From IMG/VR virus record IMGVR_UViG_3300027242_000010, positions 1-37,584 of that record: a stretch of DNA of 37,584 bases, one strand, 5' to 3'. The stretch's first letter is position 1; each line of letters opens with the position of its first letter. This DNA comes from a virus. Lineage: Duplodnaviria > Caudoviricetes. The notes under the pieces are model-generated. The model was not told the origin of the DNA. It made no database searches and saw only the letters and a list, made by a program, of their open reading frames with translations. A program made the position numbers and the translations under genes. Positions 14,157 through 37,504 of this stretch are shown here, piece by piece.

Positions 14157-17100
14157 TTGAGTATTTTCAAAAGTCCTTTTGAGCGACTATCGGTCGACAA
14201 TTTACAACTTATTAGCACTTCAACTGGAGTTACTGCATTAGCAGTTTCTCCAGGTGGTGCGTTTTTTGGTAAAGTTGACGAGATGGTAAAGTTGTTAAAA
14301 ACTATCGCAACGAATACTGCAAAATCGATTAGCACCGGCGGTCAGGCATCCAACCTTCTTCAATTTAAACAAAGACTAGATGAGTTAAAATTATTAAAAG
14401 AAATCGCAGCAAATACCAAAGCCGGTAAAGGTGGAGGTGGAGGAGCTGCAGGTGGTTCTGGAATTGGAAATGCAGTAGCACTTAAAGTTTTAGGAGGCAA
14501 GGGATTACAAGGAATTGGAAAAGGATTAGAAGCAATTGTGAACGCAATTGAATCTATGAAAGGTTCTAGTAAAGAATTTAAAGCAAAGGCAGATGCTCTA
14601 GTTTTAACAATTGATTCTATTTCAAAAATAGGACCAGCAATTCTTAAATTTGCTGGATATTTGTTCTTAGCAACACCGCTCTTGATAATAGGAGCAATTG
14701 CAGCACCCTTATTTGGTTTAGCATTATTCATTATAGCTAAAGTTTTACAAATTGCTGCAAAACCACTATCGGATAAAAAAACACAAGAGGCATTAATCGC
14801 AATGGGCGGAGTTGGAAAGGCAATATTAATACTTGGAGTTGCTTTAGTATTAGCATCAGTTCTCTATCCAGTTGGTATAATGGCATTGCCATATATTGTA
14901 ATTTCATTGTTAGCAATCGGAGGAGTATTCTATTTGCTAGATAAGATGGGAATTGATAAATCCATGAAAGATACTAGTAAAGCATTAATGTTTGCCTCTT
15001 TAGCAATTGTAACATTAGGAATAGGATTGTTATTATTTGAAGTTATTATAAACGCAATGGACAACCCAATCCAAACATTGTTCCTAGTTGGAGCAGTAGT
15101 TCTTGGTATTGGTTTAATGTTTTTTGCGCTTGATAAATTAGGAGTTGATAAATCATTAAGAACTACCAGTATTGCATTAATGTTTGCAGCTGGAGCAATA
15201 GTTTTATTAGGATTCGCAGTTATGTTAGTTGATCAGTTTTTACAAGCAACTGGAGATCCGATGGGTACATTGTTAATGATTGGAGCAATGGTTGGCGGAG
15301 TAGCACTGGTAATGTATTTAGCTGGTAAACAAGCAGTGACAATATTTGAAGGAGCACTCGTAATGATAGTTGCTGCAATCCCAATTATATTATTAGGATT
15401 AGCAGTTAATCTATTTGCAGCAGCGGTTAAACCAGATGAATCAGGTTGGACTACAATTGCTCAAATTGGTGCATTAGTTACTGGAGTAGGATTAGTTATG
15501 GGAGTTGCTGGATTAGCATCACCATTTATTCTTGCTGGAGCAGGCGCAATGATTGTTGCTGGAGTAGCATTAGTTGCAATTGCTCTTGGAGCAGCGGCAA
15601 TGGCTGCACTATTTAATAGCGCAGATATGAGTAAAATGCTTGGAGATTCTGGAGAAGTAACTGAAGGATTTATGGGATTTGGTGGTGGAAGAAAGATGAG
15701 TAATATGGAATACATGATGTTATCAATTGCTAATTCATTTACTCTTAGTCCCGTTTCAATTGCATCAATGTATGCTACTGCGCCAGCTATGGTTATGGCT
15801 GGAATAGCAATGGCTACAATATCACACGGTATTAAAAAGATTCAAGATTTAAAAATAGACTACGCTGTGTTACCAACTCAAATTGGTAACTTAATTACGT
15901 CAATCGCAACACCATTTGCTGAATTAGGAGTTAAATATCCAGGAGGACGTAAAAGCTTATTTGCTAGTATCTTTGGCGGAGGAAAACAATCTGCTCTAGC
16001 TGATGGTATCTCTGCAACAATGGGAATGGGAGACGCTCTATCAGGAATTGCTTATGGAGTTCAATCCATGGCTGACTTAAAGTTCCCAATATACACAGGA
16101 ACCAAAATTACAGGTTATTATACACTGGGAAGCGATACATTTGGAAAATTAAATACTAATATTAATTTAATTGTAGATTCTTTAAGTAGAACATTTGGTG
16201 AATTAGGAGTTAAATATCCTGGAGGTAAAGCAGGTTTCCTTTCTAGCGTTTTTGGAAGTGGAAAACAATCTCCAGTAGCTGACGGTATTGCCGCAACTAT
16301 GGGAATGGGAGAAGTTTTAACCAGTATTGCTGGTGGAGTACAATCAATGGCTGACTTAAAGTTCCCGATTTATAAAGGAACTAAAGTTATAGGTTATCAA
16401 AGTTTAAATTCAGATACTTTTGGAAAAGTTAATGATAACATCAAATTAATTGTAGATTCGTTAAGTACCGTATTTGGCGAAATAGGACTTCAGTATCCTG
16501 GAGGACAGAAGAGCTTTACGCAAATGATTTTTGGCGGTGGAGGAAATCCAGTAACAGATGGTATTGGAGCTGTTCAAGGTATGGGAAGCGCTATTTCTGA
16601 AATAGCCAAAGGAGTTCAGGCTTTTGCAGATCTTAAGATTCCAATTTATCAAAATGGAAAAATCGTAGGTTATGAATCCCTAGGAGCAGATTCCATGAAA
16701 AAAGTTACTGATAATATCAGATCTCTTGTGGTTGCATTAACAGGAACAATGGGAGAGATTGGAAATAATCCAGACGCTCAAAATGATTGGGGTTGGTTTG
16801 GTTCTTCTAAAATCGAAGATGGTGTTGAAATTGTTCAAAGTTTTGCAGATCCAATTAAGAAGATTGCAGATGCTGCTAAAACATTCATGGAAACTAATGT
16901 TGATCCAGCTGCATTAAATACTAAAATTCAAGGAATTATTTCTGGAATGACTGGTGCTCTTTCAAGCGCTGGAGAAAATGCAGATGAACAAGGTAAATTT
17001 GTTTTAGTCTTAGGAAACGTTGCTGATAAAATGAAAGTAATCGCAGAGAATATTGATCCATGGGTTAAATTCGTAGACAACTTCAAGAAATACGTTGATG

Positions 17101-17510
17101 ATATGGGTAGACTTAAAGATACCTTAAATTCATTTGACAAAGTTAACTTGAAATTTACAAGTGATATGTTCCAAGGGCTTGCATATCTTTCTGGATATAA
17201 AGGCGCTGGTTCTATTAATCAAATGAGTGCATCCCTTACTGAAGCAATCAAGAATCTATCAACGATGATTGAAGAGTTTAAGAAGAGTACAGCTGCGCCA
17301 GTTGAACCAAGTTCGGTTAATCCATCCCCTGCAATGGCTGCAGCAAACGCAAAAGCTGGAGTACCTGCAAAACCTGGAGCACCAGCATCACCAGCCGCAA
17401 ATCAAGTTACTCCGGCACAAATAGTTGCTGCTTTCAAAACCGCATTAGCTGATGTTACACTTAAAGTTAAAAGTGCAAATCAATCTACTGGAACATCAGT
17501 TAGTTTTTAA
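14157..17510 (+). CDS. Tape measure protein
   Basis: 1117 aa, Ala/Gly-rich, long hydrophobic segment, internal repeats; downstream of tube and chaperones; TTG start. Confidence 0.75.
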   Translation: MSIFKSPFERLSVDNLQLISTSTGVTALAVSPGGAFFGKVDEMVKLLKTIATNTAKSISTGGQASNLLQFKQRLDELKLLKEIAANTKAGKGGGGGAAGGSGIGNAVALKVLGGKGLQGIGKGLEAIVNAIESMKGSSKEFKAKADALVLTIDSISKIGPAILKFAGYLFLATPLLIIGAIAAPLFGLALFIIAKVLQIAAKPLSDKKTQEALIAMGGVGKAILILGVALVLASVLYPVGIMALPYIVISLLAIGGVFYLLDKMGIDKSMKDTSKALMFASLAIVTLGIGLLLFEVIINAMDNPIQTLFLVGAVVLGIGLMFFALDKLGVDKSLRTTSIALMFAAGAIVLLGFAVMLVDQFLQATGDPMGTLLMIGAMVGGVALVMYLAGKQAVTIFEGALVMIVAAIPIILLGLAVNLFAAAVKPDESGWTTIAQIGALVTGVGLVMGVAGLASPFILAGAGAMIVAGVALVAIALGAAAMAALFNSADMSKMLGDSGEVTEGFMGFGGGRKMSNMEYMMLSIANSFTLSPVSIASMYATAPAMVMAGIAMATISHGIKKIQDLKIDYAVLPTQIGNLITSIATPFAELGVKYPGGRKSLFASIFGGGKQSALADGISATMGMGDALSGIAYGVQSMADLKFPIYTGTKITGYYTLGSDTFGKLNTNINLIVDSLSRTFGELGVKYPGGKAGFLSSVFGSGKQSPVADGIAATMGMGEVLTSIAGGVQSMADLKFPIYKGTKVIGYQSLNSDTFGKVNDNIKLIVDSLSTVFGEIGLQYPGGQKSFTQMIFGGGGNPVTDGIGAVQGMGSAISEIAKGVQAFADLKIPIYQNGKIVGYESLGADSMKKVTDNIRSLVVALTGTMGEIGNNPDAQNDWGWFGSSKIEDGVEIVQSFADPIKKIADAAKTFMETNVDPAALNTKIQGIISGMTGALSSAGENADEQGKFVLVLGNVADKMKVIAENIDPWVKFVDNFKKYVDDMGRLKDTLNSFDKVNLKFTSDMFQGLAYLSGYKGAGSINQMSASLTEAIKNLSTMIEEFKKSTAAPVEPSSVNPSPAMAAANAKAGVPAKPGAPASPAANQVTPAQIVAAFKTALADVTLKVKSANQSTGTSVSF
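15921..16754 (+). repeat. Three about 93-aa (279-nt) tandem repeats in the tape measure gene
   Basis: ELGVKYPGG / ELGVKYPGG / EIGLQYPGG begin at 15921, 16200 and 16479; each unit contains GVQ..ADLK.PIY. Confidence 0.9.
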
Positions 17511-17523
17511 TATTTTAAAACCT

Positions 17524-17549
17524 AAACAATTTCTAAAAAGCATATATAA
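17524..17549 (+). promoter_or_regulatory. Putative middle promoter AAAC-N17-TATAA (overlaps ATATATA) for the tRNA
   Basis: AAAC 17524-17527 and TATAA 17545-17549; the tRNA starts at 17560. Confidence 0.6.
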
Positions 17550-17559
17550 ATTAATAACA

Positions 17560-17645
17560 GGAAAGATGGCAGAGTTGGTCTATCGCATCAGTCTTGAAAA
17601 CTGACGTACTGCAAGGTACCGTGGGTTCGAATCCTACTCTTTCCG
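17560..17645 (+). tRNA. tRNA-Ser (anticodon TGA), no encoded CCA
   Basis: Acceptor GGAAAGA/TCTTTCC, anticodon arm TCAGT-CTTGAAA-ACTGA, long variable arm GTAC-TGCAAG-GTAC, T loop GGTTCGAATCC, discriminator G followed by CAAA. Confidence 0.95.
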
Positions 17646-17665
17646 CAAAGTGGTGCCTAACACAC

Positions 17666-17725
17666 TTGAGGCCCTGAGTCAATAATGGCTTTAGAACTAT
17701 CCTAAAGGTAGTAAAAGGGTTTTAA
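17666..17725 (+). ncRNA. Candidate structured 5' leader RNA (three-way junction)
   Basis: Folded by eye: P1 TTGAGGCCCT/AGGGTTTTAA, P2 GAGTCA-ATAA-TGGCTT, P3 ACTATC-CTAAA-GGTAGT. Every non-Watson-Crick pair is G-U on the + strand. Confidence 0.45.
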
Positions 17726-17741
17726 AATAAATGGTAAAACA

Positions 17742-18536
17742 ATGAATACAACAACAAATTCGGCTCACGTTGCCGTAAAAAACAGCAGGCTCAAAACTTA
17801 CAAGAGCCCAACAAATTCAAATGTCGTATATTTAAAAGACGGCGATGAATTTCAAATCGAATTATTTAATCCTTATGAGTACTCTGTACTTGCAAAAATC
17901 TGGATGAATGACGCGATCATTTCAGAGAGTGGATTAGTCCTAAAACCAGGACAAAGAGTATTCTTAGAACGCTACATCGACACAAACAACAAATTTGTTT
18001 TTAGAACTTATGAAGTTGACGGTACCGATAAAGAAGTTCTAAATGCTATCAAAAACAACGGTTCAGTTAAAGTAATTTACTACAGAGAAAAGGTTGTACA
18101 AAATTCAGGATACGTTGTTAACGTAAATCCAAGTTGGAGAGGTTGGAATACACCAAACACTGGAACACCTACACCTTACTATGGAGATATTTCTTTCACA
18201 ACAAATACCAGTAATTTCGTAGGAGGTTCTACAACCACAAATGCAGCATTTTATTCTTCTTCTACTGCTAATGTTAGTTTACCCGGTGAACCTACATTAA
18301 GTACAAGTTATGAAACTGGTAGAGTTGAAAAAGGCTCTAGTTCAAATCAGAATTTCTCATCAGTATTTATGGAATTTGAAAATTATCCATGTGAAACTGT
18401 TTACATGCAAATTCTAGCAGAATCTAATAAACCAGCAGAAATTTCAGATCTTAGAAATTATTGTTCTGGATGTGGAACTAGAATGAAGAAACAAACTTGG
18501 AAATTCTGTCCAAGTTGCGGAACTAAAATAGATTAA
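17742..18536 (+). CDS. Hypothetical protein with beta-rich N-domain, T/S/N linker and C-terminal zinc ribbon
   Basis: C-terminal YCSGCG...KFCPSCGTK. Confidence 0.8.
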   Translation: MNTTTNSAHVAVKNSRLKTYKSPTNSNVVYLKDGDEFQIELFNPYEYSVLAKIWMNDAIISESGLVLKPGQRVFLERYIDTNNKFVFRTYEVDGTDKEVLNAIKNNGSVKVIYYREKVVQNSGYVVNVNPSWRGWNTPNTGTPTPYYGDISFTTNTSNFVGGSTTTNAAFYSSSTANVSLPGEPTLSTSYETGRVEKGSSSNQNFSSVFMEFENYPCETVYMQILAESNKPAEISDLRNYCSGCGTRMKKQTWKFCPSCGTKID

Positions 18537-18560
18537 TTATAAGTTAGGCACCACTTATAA

Positions 18561-18591
18561 AAGAAAAAGCTCTCTTTCGAGAGCTTTTCTT
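18561..18591. terminator. Bidirectional intrinsic terminator
   Basis: AAGAAAAAGCTCTC-TTTC-GAGAGCTTTTCTT between convergent genes. Confidence 0.85.
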
Positions 18592-18721
18592 ATTTACGTC
18601 CTTGACCGCGGTATTTGCTTACTTTTCTGGTATGTTTGTTTTTACCTTTAGTAGCTTTTCCACTTTTACGTTTTCCGAACTGAACTTTTGCAGGACCAGC
18701 TCCACCTTTTGCCTTTGCCAT
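18590..18721 (-). CDS. Very basic 43-aa peptide MAKAKGGAGPAKVQFGKRKSGKATKGKNKHTRKVSKYRGQGRK
   Basis: Translated by hand: ATG at 18721, TAA at 18590 running into the terminator, upstream ATAAATA and A-rich leader. Confidence 0.75.
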   Translation of the reverse strand: MAKAKGGAGPAKVQFGKRKSGKATKGKNKHTRKVSKYRGQGRK

Positions 18722-18790
18722 AATGTTGGTTTAATATTTTTAGTTGGTTTCGATATTTATTTTCACTTATTGAAAAATAAATCACTAAAA

Positions 18791-18830
18791 GTTTTTTTAT
18801 GTCAAATATTTTGTTTATATTTGTATAGTA
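18791..18830 (+). promoter_or_regulatory. Early host-type promoter, TATGTCAA subtype
   Basis: GTTTTTTTATGTCAAATATTTTGTTTATATTTGTATA contains an exact TAnnTTTG. Confidence 0.7.
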
Positions 18831-18842
18831 ATAAATAAACAT

Positions 18843-19082
18843 ATGATAGAAAAGAGAAACAGAATTAAAAACGCAGTAGAAACATTCGGAACATTAGCAA
18901 TATTTTCTGACAATGAACAGCCTCTAAGGCATATCGCCGAAATCATCGGGATCAACGAGTATCAACTAACAGATGAGGCACATGATATTATTAATGGTAT
19001 GCTATCTGAACTCCAGTATATCACGGATGAACAGATAGAAACTAGGATTTGGCCTCTTATGGAAGAATTTCAGTATGTGTAA
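18843..19082 (+). CDS. Hypothetical protein
   Basis: 79-aa ORF directly after a promoter. Confidence 0.7.
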   Translation: MIEKRNRIKNAVETFGTLAIFSDNEQPLRHIAEIIGINEYQLTDEAHDIINGMLSELQYITDEQIETRIWPLMEEFQYV

Positions 19083-19124
19083 ACAAATCGAAATTTGATA
19101 ATATAATAAAGAGAAAACATACAA

Positions 19125-19832
19125 ATGAGAATCACACTAATTTCAGATACGCACACTAAACACGACGAATTAGATTGGGACAAAACAGATCTTCCAGGTG
19201 GAGACTTGTTAATCCATGCTGGAGACATTATGAACTCAGGTTATAATGCAACCGACATTACAGATTTTTGCAAATGGTTTGATGGCTTAGAACAATATCA
19301 CCATAAAGTCTTTATTGCTGGAAATCATGATCGAATGTTTGAAAATGTACCAGAAAAGGCAATGGAAATTGTTAATTCATATAAGTGGATTGATTATTTA
19401 CAGGATGATTGGATTGAAGCTGGAGATGATAATGAAATTGCTAAAATTTACGGTAGTCCTTGGCAACCAGAATTTTACAATTGGGCATTTAACTTGCCTC
19501 GTCAAGGAAAAGAATTAGAAGCTAAATGGGCCGCAATTCCAACTGACACCGATATTTTAATCACGCATGGTCCAGCACAAGGACATTTAGATATGAGTGG
19601 ACCTCCATATAATGAGCCTAACTTAGGGTGTCCATTATTAAGGCATCATATTGATACAGTTTCTAGACCAAAGATTCATGTTTGTGGTCATATCCATGGC
19701 GGTTATGGTTATAAGTTCGATGGACAGACACATTTTTTTAACGCATCTATTCTAAACGAAAGATATGATTATGTCAATAAACCAGTCACGTTTGACTGGA
19801 ACCCAGAAACCAACGAAGTTACATTTATTTAA
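19125..19832 (+). CDS. Metallophosphoesterase (calcineurin-like, MPPED-type)
   Basis: SDTH, HAGD, AGNHD, THGP and GHIH motifs all intact. Confidence 0.92.
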   Translation: MRITLISDTHTKHDELDWDKTDLPGGDLLIHAGDIMNSGYNATDITDFCKWFDGLEQYHHKVFIAGNHDRMFENVPEKAMEIVNSYKWIDYLQDDWIEAGDDNEIAKIYGSPWQPEFYNWAFNLPRQGKELEAKWAAIPTDTDILITHGPAQGHLDMSGPPYNEPNLGCPLLRHHIDTVSRPKIHVCGHIHGGYGYKFDGQTHFFNASILNERYDYVNKPVTFDWNPETNEVTFI

Positions 19833-23166: not shown

Positions 23167-23516
23167 TGGAGAAGTTCATTATCAAACCACACAGACAGTA
23201 TGGTACCGTCTTTGGATTTGTAAATACCCTAAGTGGTACTTATATATGTCCGGGTTGGTACCCTGTTCCAGCTGGAACCCTTCGCGAACAAGTAGAGTTT
23301 GATATGAGTGATTATGTTGCACGAGAAACAAAGACTCCAGAAGTGACGAAAACACTAGTCTCAAAGGTCTACAAAGTTGAAGCTTCTAAGCCGGGTAACT
23401 TCTACGAAGTTAAAAACCAGAATGGGGATTGGAGTTGTAGTTGCCCTTCAGCATCTTTCCACAGAGGAGATTGTAAACATATTAAAAAACTAAAAGAAAG
23501 TGCCACAGATATTTAA
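23166..23516 (+). CDS. SWIM zinc-finger protein
   Basis: YEV...WSCSCP...CKHI (CxC...CxH). Confidence 0.8.
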   Translation: MEKFIIKPHRQYGTVFGFVNTLSGTYICPGWYPVPAGTLREQVEFDMSDYVARETKTPEVTKTLVSKVYKVEASKPGNFYEVKNQNGDWSCSCPSASFHRGDCKHIKKLKESATDI

Positions 23517-24237
23517 AGTAGGAGGTTGTGTAAGAGATAAATTCCTTGGAGTCGATTCTAAGGATATTGATTTTACTTTTGTGCTAGACGAACTAGACGA
23601 GACCGTAGAACAAGGATTCCAAATCATGACTGAATGGATGACTGAAAGAGGATTTGAAATTTTCTTAAGTACTCCAGATTGTTTCACAATTCGCGCAAGA
23701 TTTCCAAAAGACCATCAATTTAATGGTATGGTAGCCGATTTCGTAATGGCTCGTAAAGAAGTTGGATATGTTGAAGGAACTCGTAGACCAATCTTGGAAC
23801 TTGGAACTCTGCATGATGATTTACTACGTCGAGATTTTACAGTTAACGCCATCGCCGAATCAGTTGATGGAGAGATTATTGATCCATTTGGCGGAGTAGC
23901 CGATTTGAAACTTGGAATCTTAAGAACTCCACTTCCAGCCGAGCAGACGATGATGGACGATCCATTGAGAATCCTAAGAGCCTTAAGATTTCAAATCACT
24001 AAAGGTTTTAGCATTCATGAAGATATTTGGATGGCAATGGCTCAACCAGAAATCTTAGAGAAATTAAAGACTACTGTTAGCGCTGAAAGAATTAGAGACG
24101 AAGTTTTCAAAATGATGAAACAAGATACACCAATGACTATAAAAGTATTAAGTCTTGTTGATAATCACTCTATTCCAGGATTTATTGACTTAGTATTTGG
24201 TCGAGGTTTATGGTTAAAACCAACTTTTGAACTATGA
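23500..24237 (+). CDS. tRNA nucleotidyltransferase (class II CCA-adding / poly(A) polymerase family)
   Basis: VGGCVRD, KDIDF, DL.RRDFTVNA, DPFGG..DL, DDPLRILRA.RF and SAERI; GTG start. Confidence 0.88.
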   Translation: MPQIFKVGGCVRDKFLGVDSKDIDFTFVLDELDETVEQGFQIMTEWMTERGFEIFLSTPDCFTIRARFPKDHQFNGMVADFVMARKEVGYVEGTRRPILELGTLHDDLLRRDFTVNAIAESVDGEIIDPFGGVADLKLGILRTPLPAEQTMMDDPLRILRALRFQITKGFSIHEDIWMAMAQPEILEKLKTTVSAERIRDEVFKMMKQDTPMTIKVLSLVDNHSIPGFIDLVFGRGLWLKPTFEL

Positions 24238-36073: not shown

Positions 36074-37504
36074 ATGAAATTCGTAGACGCATTAAGACAA
36101 GAAGACCAGTTAACTGAAAATGGAATGGCAACCAACTCAACATCTTTAAATGCATGCGTTGATTTGTTCTTTAATATTGGAGCAATGCGTGGCCAAGACA
36201 AAACCCGCTTAATTGCAACTTTCTCAAAGGCTTTCAATGAAGATCCTAAAAGAGCCTTAAAATTATTATTCTGGGCTAGAGATGTTCGTGGTGGAGCTGG
36301 AGAACGTCAAGTTTTTAAAGACATTTTAGTCTACTTAGCCGAAAACCACGATCTCGTTTTAAAGAGCAATCTACAATACGTTTCAGAATATGGTCGTTGG
36401 GATGACTTACTAGCCTTAGTAGGAACCTATCTTGAAAAAGATGCATTTACCCTAATTTCAGATGCCTTAATCGCTGAAAATGGTTTATGCGCAAAATGGA
36501 TGCCACGTAAAGGTGCAGTCGCTGAAAAGTTACGTAAATTTACTGGAATGTCTCCAAAACAATACCGTAAATCTCTTGTAGGTTTAACTAATGTTGTTGA
36601 AACCAAAATGTGTGCTAAAGACTGGGATTCTATCGATTTCGGTAAATTACCATCAGTCGCTTCGGCTAGGTATCAAAAAGCCTTTGGTAAAAATGCATAC
36701 GAAAGTTATTCAGCTTATATTGCTTCCCTAGTAAAAGGAGAGGCTAAAATTAATGCTGGAGCAGTTTACCCTTATGATGTTACTAAGTCGTTAGATCACG
36801 GTAACAAAACTGTTGCAAACGAACAATGGAAAGCCTTACCAAACTATTTGGAAGGTGCAAACGATATGATTCTGCCAGTTGTGGATGTTTCAGGTTCTAT
36901 GTCTTCTCCAGCCGGAGGAAGTAAAACCGTAACTTGCATGGATGTTGCAATCTCGTTAGGTCTCTATATTTCTGAAAGAAATGAAGGTCCTTTCAAAGAT
37001 GCATTTATCACATTCTCAAGTACGCCACAATTGCAGGTATTAAGTGGTACCCTAAGTGATCGCTACACACAGATGGCAAGCTCCGATTGGGGAATGTCAA
37101 CGAATCTTGAGGCGACGTTTAAATTGATCCTGGATCAAGCCACTAAACATAATCTGTCTCAGGACGAAATGCCAAATAAGGTATTAATCCTATCGGATAT
37201 GGAGTTCAATGCAGCAACCGGAGGTGGAGGTTGGAGAAATGAAGGTGGAAAATGGACACCTACTGCTCAACAAATGATTGAGAAAATGTACAACGACGCA
37301 GGTTATAAAGTACCTCAAATTGTTTATTGGAATATTCAATCCAGAAATGGTGGAATACCAGTCGCATTTGATACTCAAGGAACTGCTCTAGTATCTGGAT
37401 TCTCTCCAGCGATTATGACAAGTTTACTTGGAGGAGATATTGAATCTCCACAACAAATAATGGATAAAACAATTTTAAGCGAGAGATACGCGAGAATTTG
37501 TTAA
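36074..37504 (+). CDS. DUF2828-type helical domain plus vWA protein (TROVE/Ro60-like architecture)
   Basis: TENG, DLFF, ARDVRGGAGER, YGRWDDL, AKWMPR; MIDAS motifs DVSGSM, W..STN and SDMEF; YWN and VSGFS. Confidence 0.8.
   Translation: MKFVDALRQEDQLTENGMATNSTSLNACVDLFFNIGAMRGQDKTRLIATFSKAFNEDPKRALKLLFWARDVRGGAGERQVFKDILVYLAENHDLVLKSNLQYVSEYGRWDDLLALVGTYLEKDAFTLISDALIAENGLCAKWMPRKGAVAEKLRKFTGMSPKQYRKSLVGLTNVVETKMCAKDWDSIDFGKLPSVASARYQKAFGKNAYESYSAYIASLVKGEAKINAGAVYPYDVTKSLDHGNKTVANEQWKALPNYLEGANDMILPVVDVSGSMSSPAGGSKTVTCMDVAISLGLYISERNEGPFKDAFITFSSTPQLQVLSGTLSDRYTQMASSDWGMSTNLEATFKLILDQATKHNLSQDEMPNKVLILSDMEFNAATGGGGWRNEGGKWTPTAQQMIEKMYNDAGYKVPQIVYWNIQSRNGGIPVAFDTQGTALVSGFSPAIMTSLLGGDIESPQQIMDKTILSERYARIC

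Follow-up and report, generated by a model that had tools for sequence, protein, structure and literature searches.

Tested examples of end-to-end pairing in bacterial-type mRNAs are few. In the hbs mRNA of Bacillus subtilis (PMC5737220), a 14-nt stretch of the 5' untranslated region (UTR) is paired with a complementary segment immediately before the terminator; the 5' segment is an internal one that coincides in part with an RNase Y site, and the interaction was shown in vivo. In type I toxin mRNAs (i.e., hok and aapA), the end interaction is described as masking the ribosome site for a small toxin, the message being activated by 3' trimming (PMC6733600). Two further classes of RNA structure and one survey candidate are relevant here. 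Intrinsic terminators are described as a stem followed directly by a U-tract (PMC3993855). The k-junctions, of which the TPP riboswitch, DUF-3268, and 23S J4,5 and J94/99 are given as examples, tolerate A-A at 2b-2n (PMC4005666, PMC10573300). In the table rows of a survey of viral structured RNAs, candidate DNAVirus_8941 (76 nt) comprises 11 sequences from mammal-gut phages, 6 of which lie just upstream of a zinc_ribbon_2 gene (PMC10690425).

Here, we describe a locus in a 37,584-nt stretch of phage DNA (IMG/VR record IMGVR_UViG_3300027242_000010; the whole stretch is referred to as the window) at which a predicted end-to-end helix sits beside a conserved three-way-junction leader. No published description of such a paired-end system was found in the literature searched, from whose coverage most subscription papers fell outside. 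As in hbs, the two UTRs of the locus contain mutually complementary stretches, and that in the 3' UTR immediately precedes the terminator; the energies are comparable (-19 kcal/mol for hbs and -23.5 kcal/mol here). Unlike the hbs arrangement as reported (PMC5737220), the phage 5' arm lies at the predicted 5' end, covaries across the family, and stands beside a conserved junction, and members of the phage family often have no terminator hairpin behind the 3' arm. In contrast to hok and aapA, the start region here is predicted to stay accessible when the ends pair (PMC6733600). By analogy, the panhandle may act in the manner of the end interactions in hbs and hok/aapA (PMC5737220, PMC6733600).

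Two specific assignments were rejected. A type I toxin-antitoxin mRNA does not fit a product consisting of a 264-aa beta-sandwich plus zinc ribbon, with no small toxin open reading frame (ORF). Sequestration of the ribosome site as in hok/aapA does not fit a 5' arm that ends 80 nt before the start codon and whose blocking lowers the predicted cost of opening the start region.

The locus and its virus

The window virus record is rated 12% complete, and near-complete relatives are jumbo phages of 256 to 430 kb. The window encodes a terminase, tail sheath and tube proteins, a clamp loader, a sigma-70-type factor, and a tRNA nucleotidyltransferase (phrog_24229; positions 23500-24237). It also carries a DUF2828/DUF7788 protein labelled RNA-binding (phrog_850; 36074-37504) and, upstream of the locus, a 1117-aa ORF (14157-17510) with 279-nt internal repeats at 15913-16504. 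The hosts of Lak phages and the bins that hold homologous contigs point to a host in the Bacteroidota.

The gene between the arms belongs to a family of 2498 homologues, including those of Lak and other huge phages, with 22 GenBank records. Its 264-aa product is predicted to consist of an Ig-like beta-sandwich, a disordered insert (residues 121-186), and a C-terminal zinc ribbon. Comparison of the predicted fold with the PDB gave no match (best Z, 6.5, to generic Ig-like folds). The predicted fold does match uncharacterised proteins of giant viruses, nudiviruses, iridoviruses, and granuloviruses, as well as Wsv390 of white spot virus (E, 9e-7; 13% identity); white spot virus ORF390 has been described as a P35-like caspase inhibitor (PMC3317351). 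It is a matter of speculation that the disordered insert could be a protease bait loop.

An earlier note on this DNA had claimed a perfect 14-bp inverted repeat around this gene. Both arms are indeed exact reverse complements of 14 nt, spaced 881 nt apart, and a search of the whole window found exact copies of the 14-mer at these two arms alone (Table 1). Their placement is also as the earlier note had it: the 5' arm starts at the third base past the tRNA discriminator (G17645), the 3' arm begins at the seventh base past the stop of the zinc-ribbon gene (18536), and a two-way terminator-like hairpin (18565-18588) stands behind it. The reported absence of a transposase agrees with a Pfam scan of 38 proteins (from 81 ORFs of at least 60 aa), which contained no transposase or recombinase family. 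A perfect repeat of at least 14 nt arose in 6 of 5000 shuffles of both intergenic regions, and the window holds a second perfect 14-mer pair within 2 kb (4660/5780, inside genes). Because of these two observations, the repeat at this single locus is only moderately unlikely by chance, and the case therefore rests on conservation in relatives.

Table 1. Positions of features at the zinc-ribbon locus of the window
Feature	Position	Strand	Basis or remark
Promoter-like box ATATATAA, predicted phage promoter	17542..17549	+	10 nt before tRNA
tRNA-Ser(TGA), ending G-CAA	17560..17645	+	Rfam; ARAGORN end, 17646
5' arm of long-range helix	17648..17661	+	Exact repeat search, fold prediction
Three-way junction leader	17666..17725	+	Covariation model R1
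Leader helix P1	17666-75/17716-25	+	
Leader helix P2	17676-91	+	
Leader helix P3	17696-17712	+	
Junction strand UAGA	17692-95	+	
Junction strand AAA	17713-15	+	
A-rich translation initiation region	17726..17741	+	17733-17740 predicted to pair weakly with 5' arm
Zinc-ribbon protein gene, 264 aa	17742..18536	+	Domain search, structure prediction
3' arm of long-range helix	18543..18556	+	Pair probabilities 0.98-1.0 at 13 of 14 pairs, 0.79 at the first
Terminator-like hairpin	about 18564..18590	both	Terminator scan; common to the convergent small gene
Convergent ORF, 43 aa, basic	18590..18721	-	Neighbour, outside the fold

The convergent 43-aa ORF is very basic and matches unnamed clusters of 83 to 475 members; in close relatives, DNA resembling its region is also found 3' of the zinc-ribbon gene. 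Farther downstream, before the next gene, positions 18792-18822 match many unrelated contigs (depth of about 100 vs 11) and probably represent a widely shared promoter-like motif.

Complementary ends across relatives

The earlier note had proposed comparing the flanks of homologous genes. We assembled a first set consisting of the window and 148 loci, from which three partial zinc-ribbon hits were excluded and in which nine loci were incomplete; it yielded 109 distinct flank sets, 102 with enough flank, and 72 representatives (<85% protein identity). A hold-out set gathered later comprised 190 loci, 181 of them complete; it supplied 50 further representatives, and the leader could be located in 39 of these. 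Unconstrained duplex energies were noisy against shuffles (35/72 at p<=0.02), and a test with segments fixed by position was used instead.

With this test, the duplex within a locus reached -17 kcal/mol or better in 51 of the 72 representatives, and the remaining 21 had values of -12.1 kcal/mol or weaker. Non-cognate arm pairs averaged -9.6 kcal/mol (n=4478), and the own arm beat every non-cognate arm in 46/72 representatives. The hold-out gave the same picture, with complementary arms in 33/39; in five of the other six, the arms are visible at -16.4 to -16.9 kcal/mol. The ends are thus complementary in both sets, with sequences that differ among loci. There are about a dozen arm types, anchored in 45 of the 51 panhandle loci by a CC/GG core, around which most positions show several pair types; one helix pair, for example, is G-C in the window, G-U in L194, and A-U in L206. 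The helices are interrupted by bulges or mismatches in 41/51 loci. Among isolated mismatches within helices (33 contexts), G-U/U-G occurred 11 times and C-A/A-C twice, a bias that points to RNA of the coding strand, even with the slight advantage that selection by RNA energy gives to G-U. All 22 full-length folds computed from the 51 panhandle loci had a panhandle probability of 1.00.

The covariation, the G-U pairs, the bulges, and the prediction of the helix in the full transcript bear out the suggestion that the arms form an end-to-end RNA helix, and we hold with high confidence that they represent selected RNA pairing.

The panhandle is dispensable, since 21/72 representatives and three Lak-phage loci do without it. 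Fourteen of these 21 representatives fall in one clade, and presence and absence require 7 changes on a quick protein tree. At the three Lak-phage loci fetched (L305, L307, and L309), no clear panhandle was found; their homologues have in-frame TAG codons (1 or 2 counted). Among nine GenBank loci, LR756500 and LR756502 have clear arms. Two distant homologues (L311 and L312; LR756502 and LR745206) have a different C-terminus without the zinc ribbon, and their ends are still complementary (14 and 8 bp, respectively).

A three-way-junction leader

The leader was sought with a descriptor that fixed pairing and linker lengths and left the letters free; a version with a 2-nt linker failed, and 3 nt was set after inspection. 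The descriptor fits 63/72 representatives at -8 kcal/mol or better. The junction letters, on which it places no demand, read U-N-G-A in 61/63 and R-A-W in 63/63, with G at 2n in 27; the corresponding hold-out counts are 38/38 and 37/38. Among 55 aligned leaders, 13 of 14 pairs vary on both sides; their 100% pairing is partly built in, as these leaders were cut by the same descriptor, and slid controls are 42 to 47% paired.

Covariation model R1 scores the window leader at 66.9 bits, the only strong match there, the window sequence being part of the model. It gives one strong match per genome in 5 near-complete jumbo genomes and a single strong copy in each of the 10 genomes or records searched. 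The model matches 7/9 GenBank loci, the Lak ones among them weakly, a weak junction match being found in two of the three Lak loci. In 151 genomes from the same phylum as a Bacteroidetes bin, no leader was found beyond the known contig and one 24.6-bit match within a coding sequence. Rfam 15 at gathering score returned only the tRNA in window positions 16500-19500, with nothing on the leader or arms, and only group I introns at 10 homologous loci.

The leader resembles k-junctions in being a three-way junction with two abutting helices and in having a loop followed by G-A on one strand and R-A on the other (PMC4005666, PMC10573300). The third helix lies on the non-bulged strand and abuts the C helix (63/72), G1b-A2b and A1n are conserved, and 2n is G or A. 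By its sequence and covariation, the leader thus fits a k-junction-like fold. It differs from the named examples in its two-base loop and unrelated stems (PMC4005666, PMC10573300). A protein probably binds the junction, and this may be the zinc-ribbon product of the gene itself.

DNAVirus_8941, compared with the leader by the survey's table rows alone, might correspond to the leader as it occurs in Lak phages; unlike our description of the leader family, these rows are silent on end pairing (PMC10690425). Motif strings were absent from those supplements of the survey that were searched, which did not include the alignments (PMC10690425).

Promoter-like box, tRNA, and the 5' end

Six of the seven plus-strand copies of the ATATATAA box in the window lie 10 to 20 nt ahead of a gene start, and the seventh lies near the window end. 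From this placement, we infer that the box acts as a phage promoter; total counts of ATATAWAW are at the chance level, so that positions alone are informative, and a sigma-70 promoter scan was likewise at the chance level.

A tRNA stands between box and leader only in the window's clade. Of the panhandle loci, 47 have 300 nt or more of upstream DNA. In these, the distance between the end of a tRNA and the arm is at most 15 nt in 5, 16 to 60 nt in 4, and greater in 2; the upstream DNA examined contains no tRNA in the other 36. The five loci with a tRNA abutting the arm, including the window, form one clade (support, 99). The promoter-like box lies just before the arm in 52/60 tRNA-less loci vs 0/12 tRNA loci (2.8% inside ORFs, an imperfect control). 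As 36/47 panhandle loci have no upstream tRNA, the tRNA-fed leader is a derived arrangement, and the repeat belongs to the zinc-ribbon mRNA, not to the tRNA. Since the box adjoins the arm in tRNA-less loci and precedes the tRNA here, tRNA trimming likely supplies the 5' end in the window; 3' trimming of the tRNA would recreate the usual 5' end of the family. Release of the mRNA by tRNA processing, as previously suggested, is therefore plausible in the window's clade, where no box precedes the arm, and does not extend to the family. The description of the tRNA as CCA-less holds for the window (G-CAA), while CCA is encoded in 4 of 7 close relatives (L194, L203, L204, and L206).

In L199 (1096-1289) and L179 (1093-1283), a group I intron occurs at the upstream tRNA gene (Rfam RF00028; ARAGORN intron calls). 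Some sister loci carry an HNH-like gene or a hairpin plus U-run between tRNA and arm; in L005, L007, and L008, the ORF between tRNA-Ser and the 5' arm has what we take, by eye, to be an HNH-endonuclease-like motif. A ribozyme at the tRNA 3' end was considered and rejected, as there was no Rfam match and the fold also occurs without a tRNA.

Contigs of close relatives from RNA libraries extend over the gene, and those of one run link tRNA and ORF; such contigs can include DNA. Circularisation of the transcript, another proposal of the earlier note, finds no backing in five RNA runs, in which no backward joint was seen, a weak negative drawn from contigs alone.

What the helix may do

We think it moderately probable, and the most likely explanation, that the helix closes the finished one-gene message, defining and shielding its ends. 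Transcription would start at the box, and in the window's clade trimming of the tRNA-Ser 3' end would free the 5' arm (i.e., the end that relatives would obtain directly from the promoter). In the nascent RNA, the 5' arm would be held in a weak local hairpin or weakly paired with the start-codon region: it also forms the 5' strand and loop of a predicted hairpin at 17648-17667, and before the 3' arm is made it pairs with 17733-17740 at a predicted probability of 0.64-0.68. The 3' arm would then invade via the conserved CC/GG core and displace these pairings (-23.5 kcal/mol for arm-arm vs -5.0 for the local hairpin and -6.4 for the start pairing). The local hairpin is better than shuffles (p<=0.1) in only 19/51 panhandle loci. 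The finished helix would protect both ends and modestly open the start region, with the junction probably serving as the putative protein-binding site and, in relatives that have no terminator hairpin, the helix taking over the 3'-end job.

This last step leads to a stronger proposal, which we consider possible at low probability, that the helix serves chiefly in termination: the transcript would provide, with its 5' end, the upstream strand of an intrinsic terminator that has the whole gene as its loop. No local terminator hairpin follows the 3' arm in 42 of 84 panhandle loci (51 from the first set and 33 from the hold-out), as counted after a first detector that missed hairpins in L194, L274, and L264 had been replaced. 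At least 5 U in the 8 nt after the arm were found in 22/26 hairpin-less loci vs 1/25 with a hairpin in the first set (background, 15%), and in 7/16 vs 0/17 in the hold-out; under a stricter rule, the pooled counts are 25/42 vs 1/42. Loci without a panhandle keep a hairpin in 20/21 cases (first set). The median duplex energy is -28.9 kcal/mol in hairpin-less loci vs -21.1 kcal/mol in those with a hairpin (42 each), a trend without significance across independent pairs (p, 0.375). An oligonucleotide can take the place of the upstream strand in a terminator stem. Antisense RNA, as reported, can form duplexes in the polymerase exit channel (PMC5842316). Like intrinsic terminators, 25/42 hairpin-less relatives have a G/C-rich duplex and then a U-rich tract; unlike them, the loop would be about 850 nt with a translated gene, and the window does not fit (PMC3993855).

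Several points weigh against termination as the main job. In 8 independent pairs, the U-run trend had the same direction in 5.4 and was never reversed, but the sign test gave a median p of just about 0.06 (0.125 in another run). The U-run is missing from 17/42 hairpin-less loci, many of the U's are opposite A's that precede the 5' arm and could simply make the helix longer, and the idea arose from the first set, with a weaker effect in the hold-out. The window itself has UUAUAAAA (3 U) after the 3' arm and then an ordinary terminator. The helix may act as a gene-spanning terminator in hairpin-less relatives, for which the phylogenetic support is suggestive only; that the window's clade, with its local hairpin, keeps the helix for a second use is a tentative suggestion. 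Equally doubtful is the fullest form of this proposal, in which the first bases of the mRNA would supply the upstream strand for an intrinsic terminator some 850 nt farther along the same molecule, with the whole gene as loop, and termination, end protection, and start-codon opening would all depend on an intact free 5' end, supplied by tRNA processing in the window's clade.

It is rather improbable that the helix serves in processing as the stems flanking rRNAs do, with an RNase III-type double-strand cut that would free the mRNA or start its decay. Several clades with neither hairpin nor U-run do have helices of 22 to 25 pairs (-29 to -39 kcal/mol), and several tRNA-clade loci have a hairpin plus U-run and no promoter-like box just before the arm, so that the 5' end there needs processing. 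Many helices, however, are just 9 to 14 bp, and in tRNA-less loci the arm lies right behind the promoter-like box, so that no release from a longer transcript is needed.

A translation gate, in which the start region would stay blocked by the 5' arm until synthesis of the 3' arm, so that only complete messages are translated, is quite unlikely as the main purpose of the helix. Different arm types match different start-region islands; against 253 other starts, the own start region ranks within the best 20% for 39/51 arms (rank median, 0.13), and the opening cost in the window drops from 3.6 to 1.3 kcal/mol when the arm is blocked. Initiation in Bacteroidetes is reported to be tuned by structure (PMC6847099). 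Against this, the arm-start pairings are just 4 to 8 bp, a test for 5-mers shared by arm and start region was negative (14/51 vs 21%), and the gain in start opening has a median of 0.7 kcal/mol (>1 kcal/mol in 22/51; opposite direction in 6/51). In the full-length ensemble of the window, the start region is not more open (0.64 vs 0.73 unpaired). Translation gating by the arm appears to be a minor effect.

That the arms are DNA recombination sites, as an invertible cassette or attC-like ends, is exceedingly improbable: the repeat is perfect in the window and the inner ends of its arms match the attC R-box consensus, but R''/R' boxes occur in 1/51 panhandle loci, which rejects an integron attC site; the arms are imperfect in 41/51 and G-U biased, which speaks against an inverting cassette with near-perfect conserved repeats; and no recombinase is among the 38 proteins scanned. 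The inversion of 17662-18542 that the earlier note had raised as an alternative was not borne out, as contigs from three DNA runs cross the gene colinearly with no strand-changing joint seen (contigs drop rare variants).

Implications

The three-way junction, the other pairings open to the 5' arm, and the connection with loss of the terminator go beyond the earlier note. The locus adds a derived tRNA-fed arrangement and an apparent trade-off between panhandle and terminator. If the helix terminates transcription in the hairpin-less lineages, intrinsic terminators would not always be local hairpins, as the rule has it, and termination could be made to depend on the condition of the 5' end. Since the family offers both covariation in >80 non-redundant phage loci and natural lineages that lost the panhandle, the purpose of the panhandle is directly testable. 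In the 256- to 430-kb genomes searched, the junction leader is single-copy, and a recognisable form of it is also present in Lak and other huge phages; this single-copy, widespread occurrence points to a putative RNA-binding regulator.
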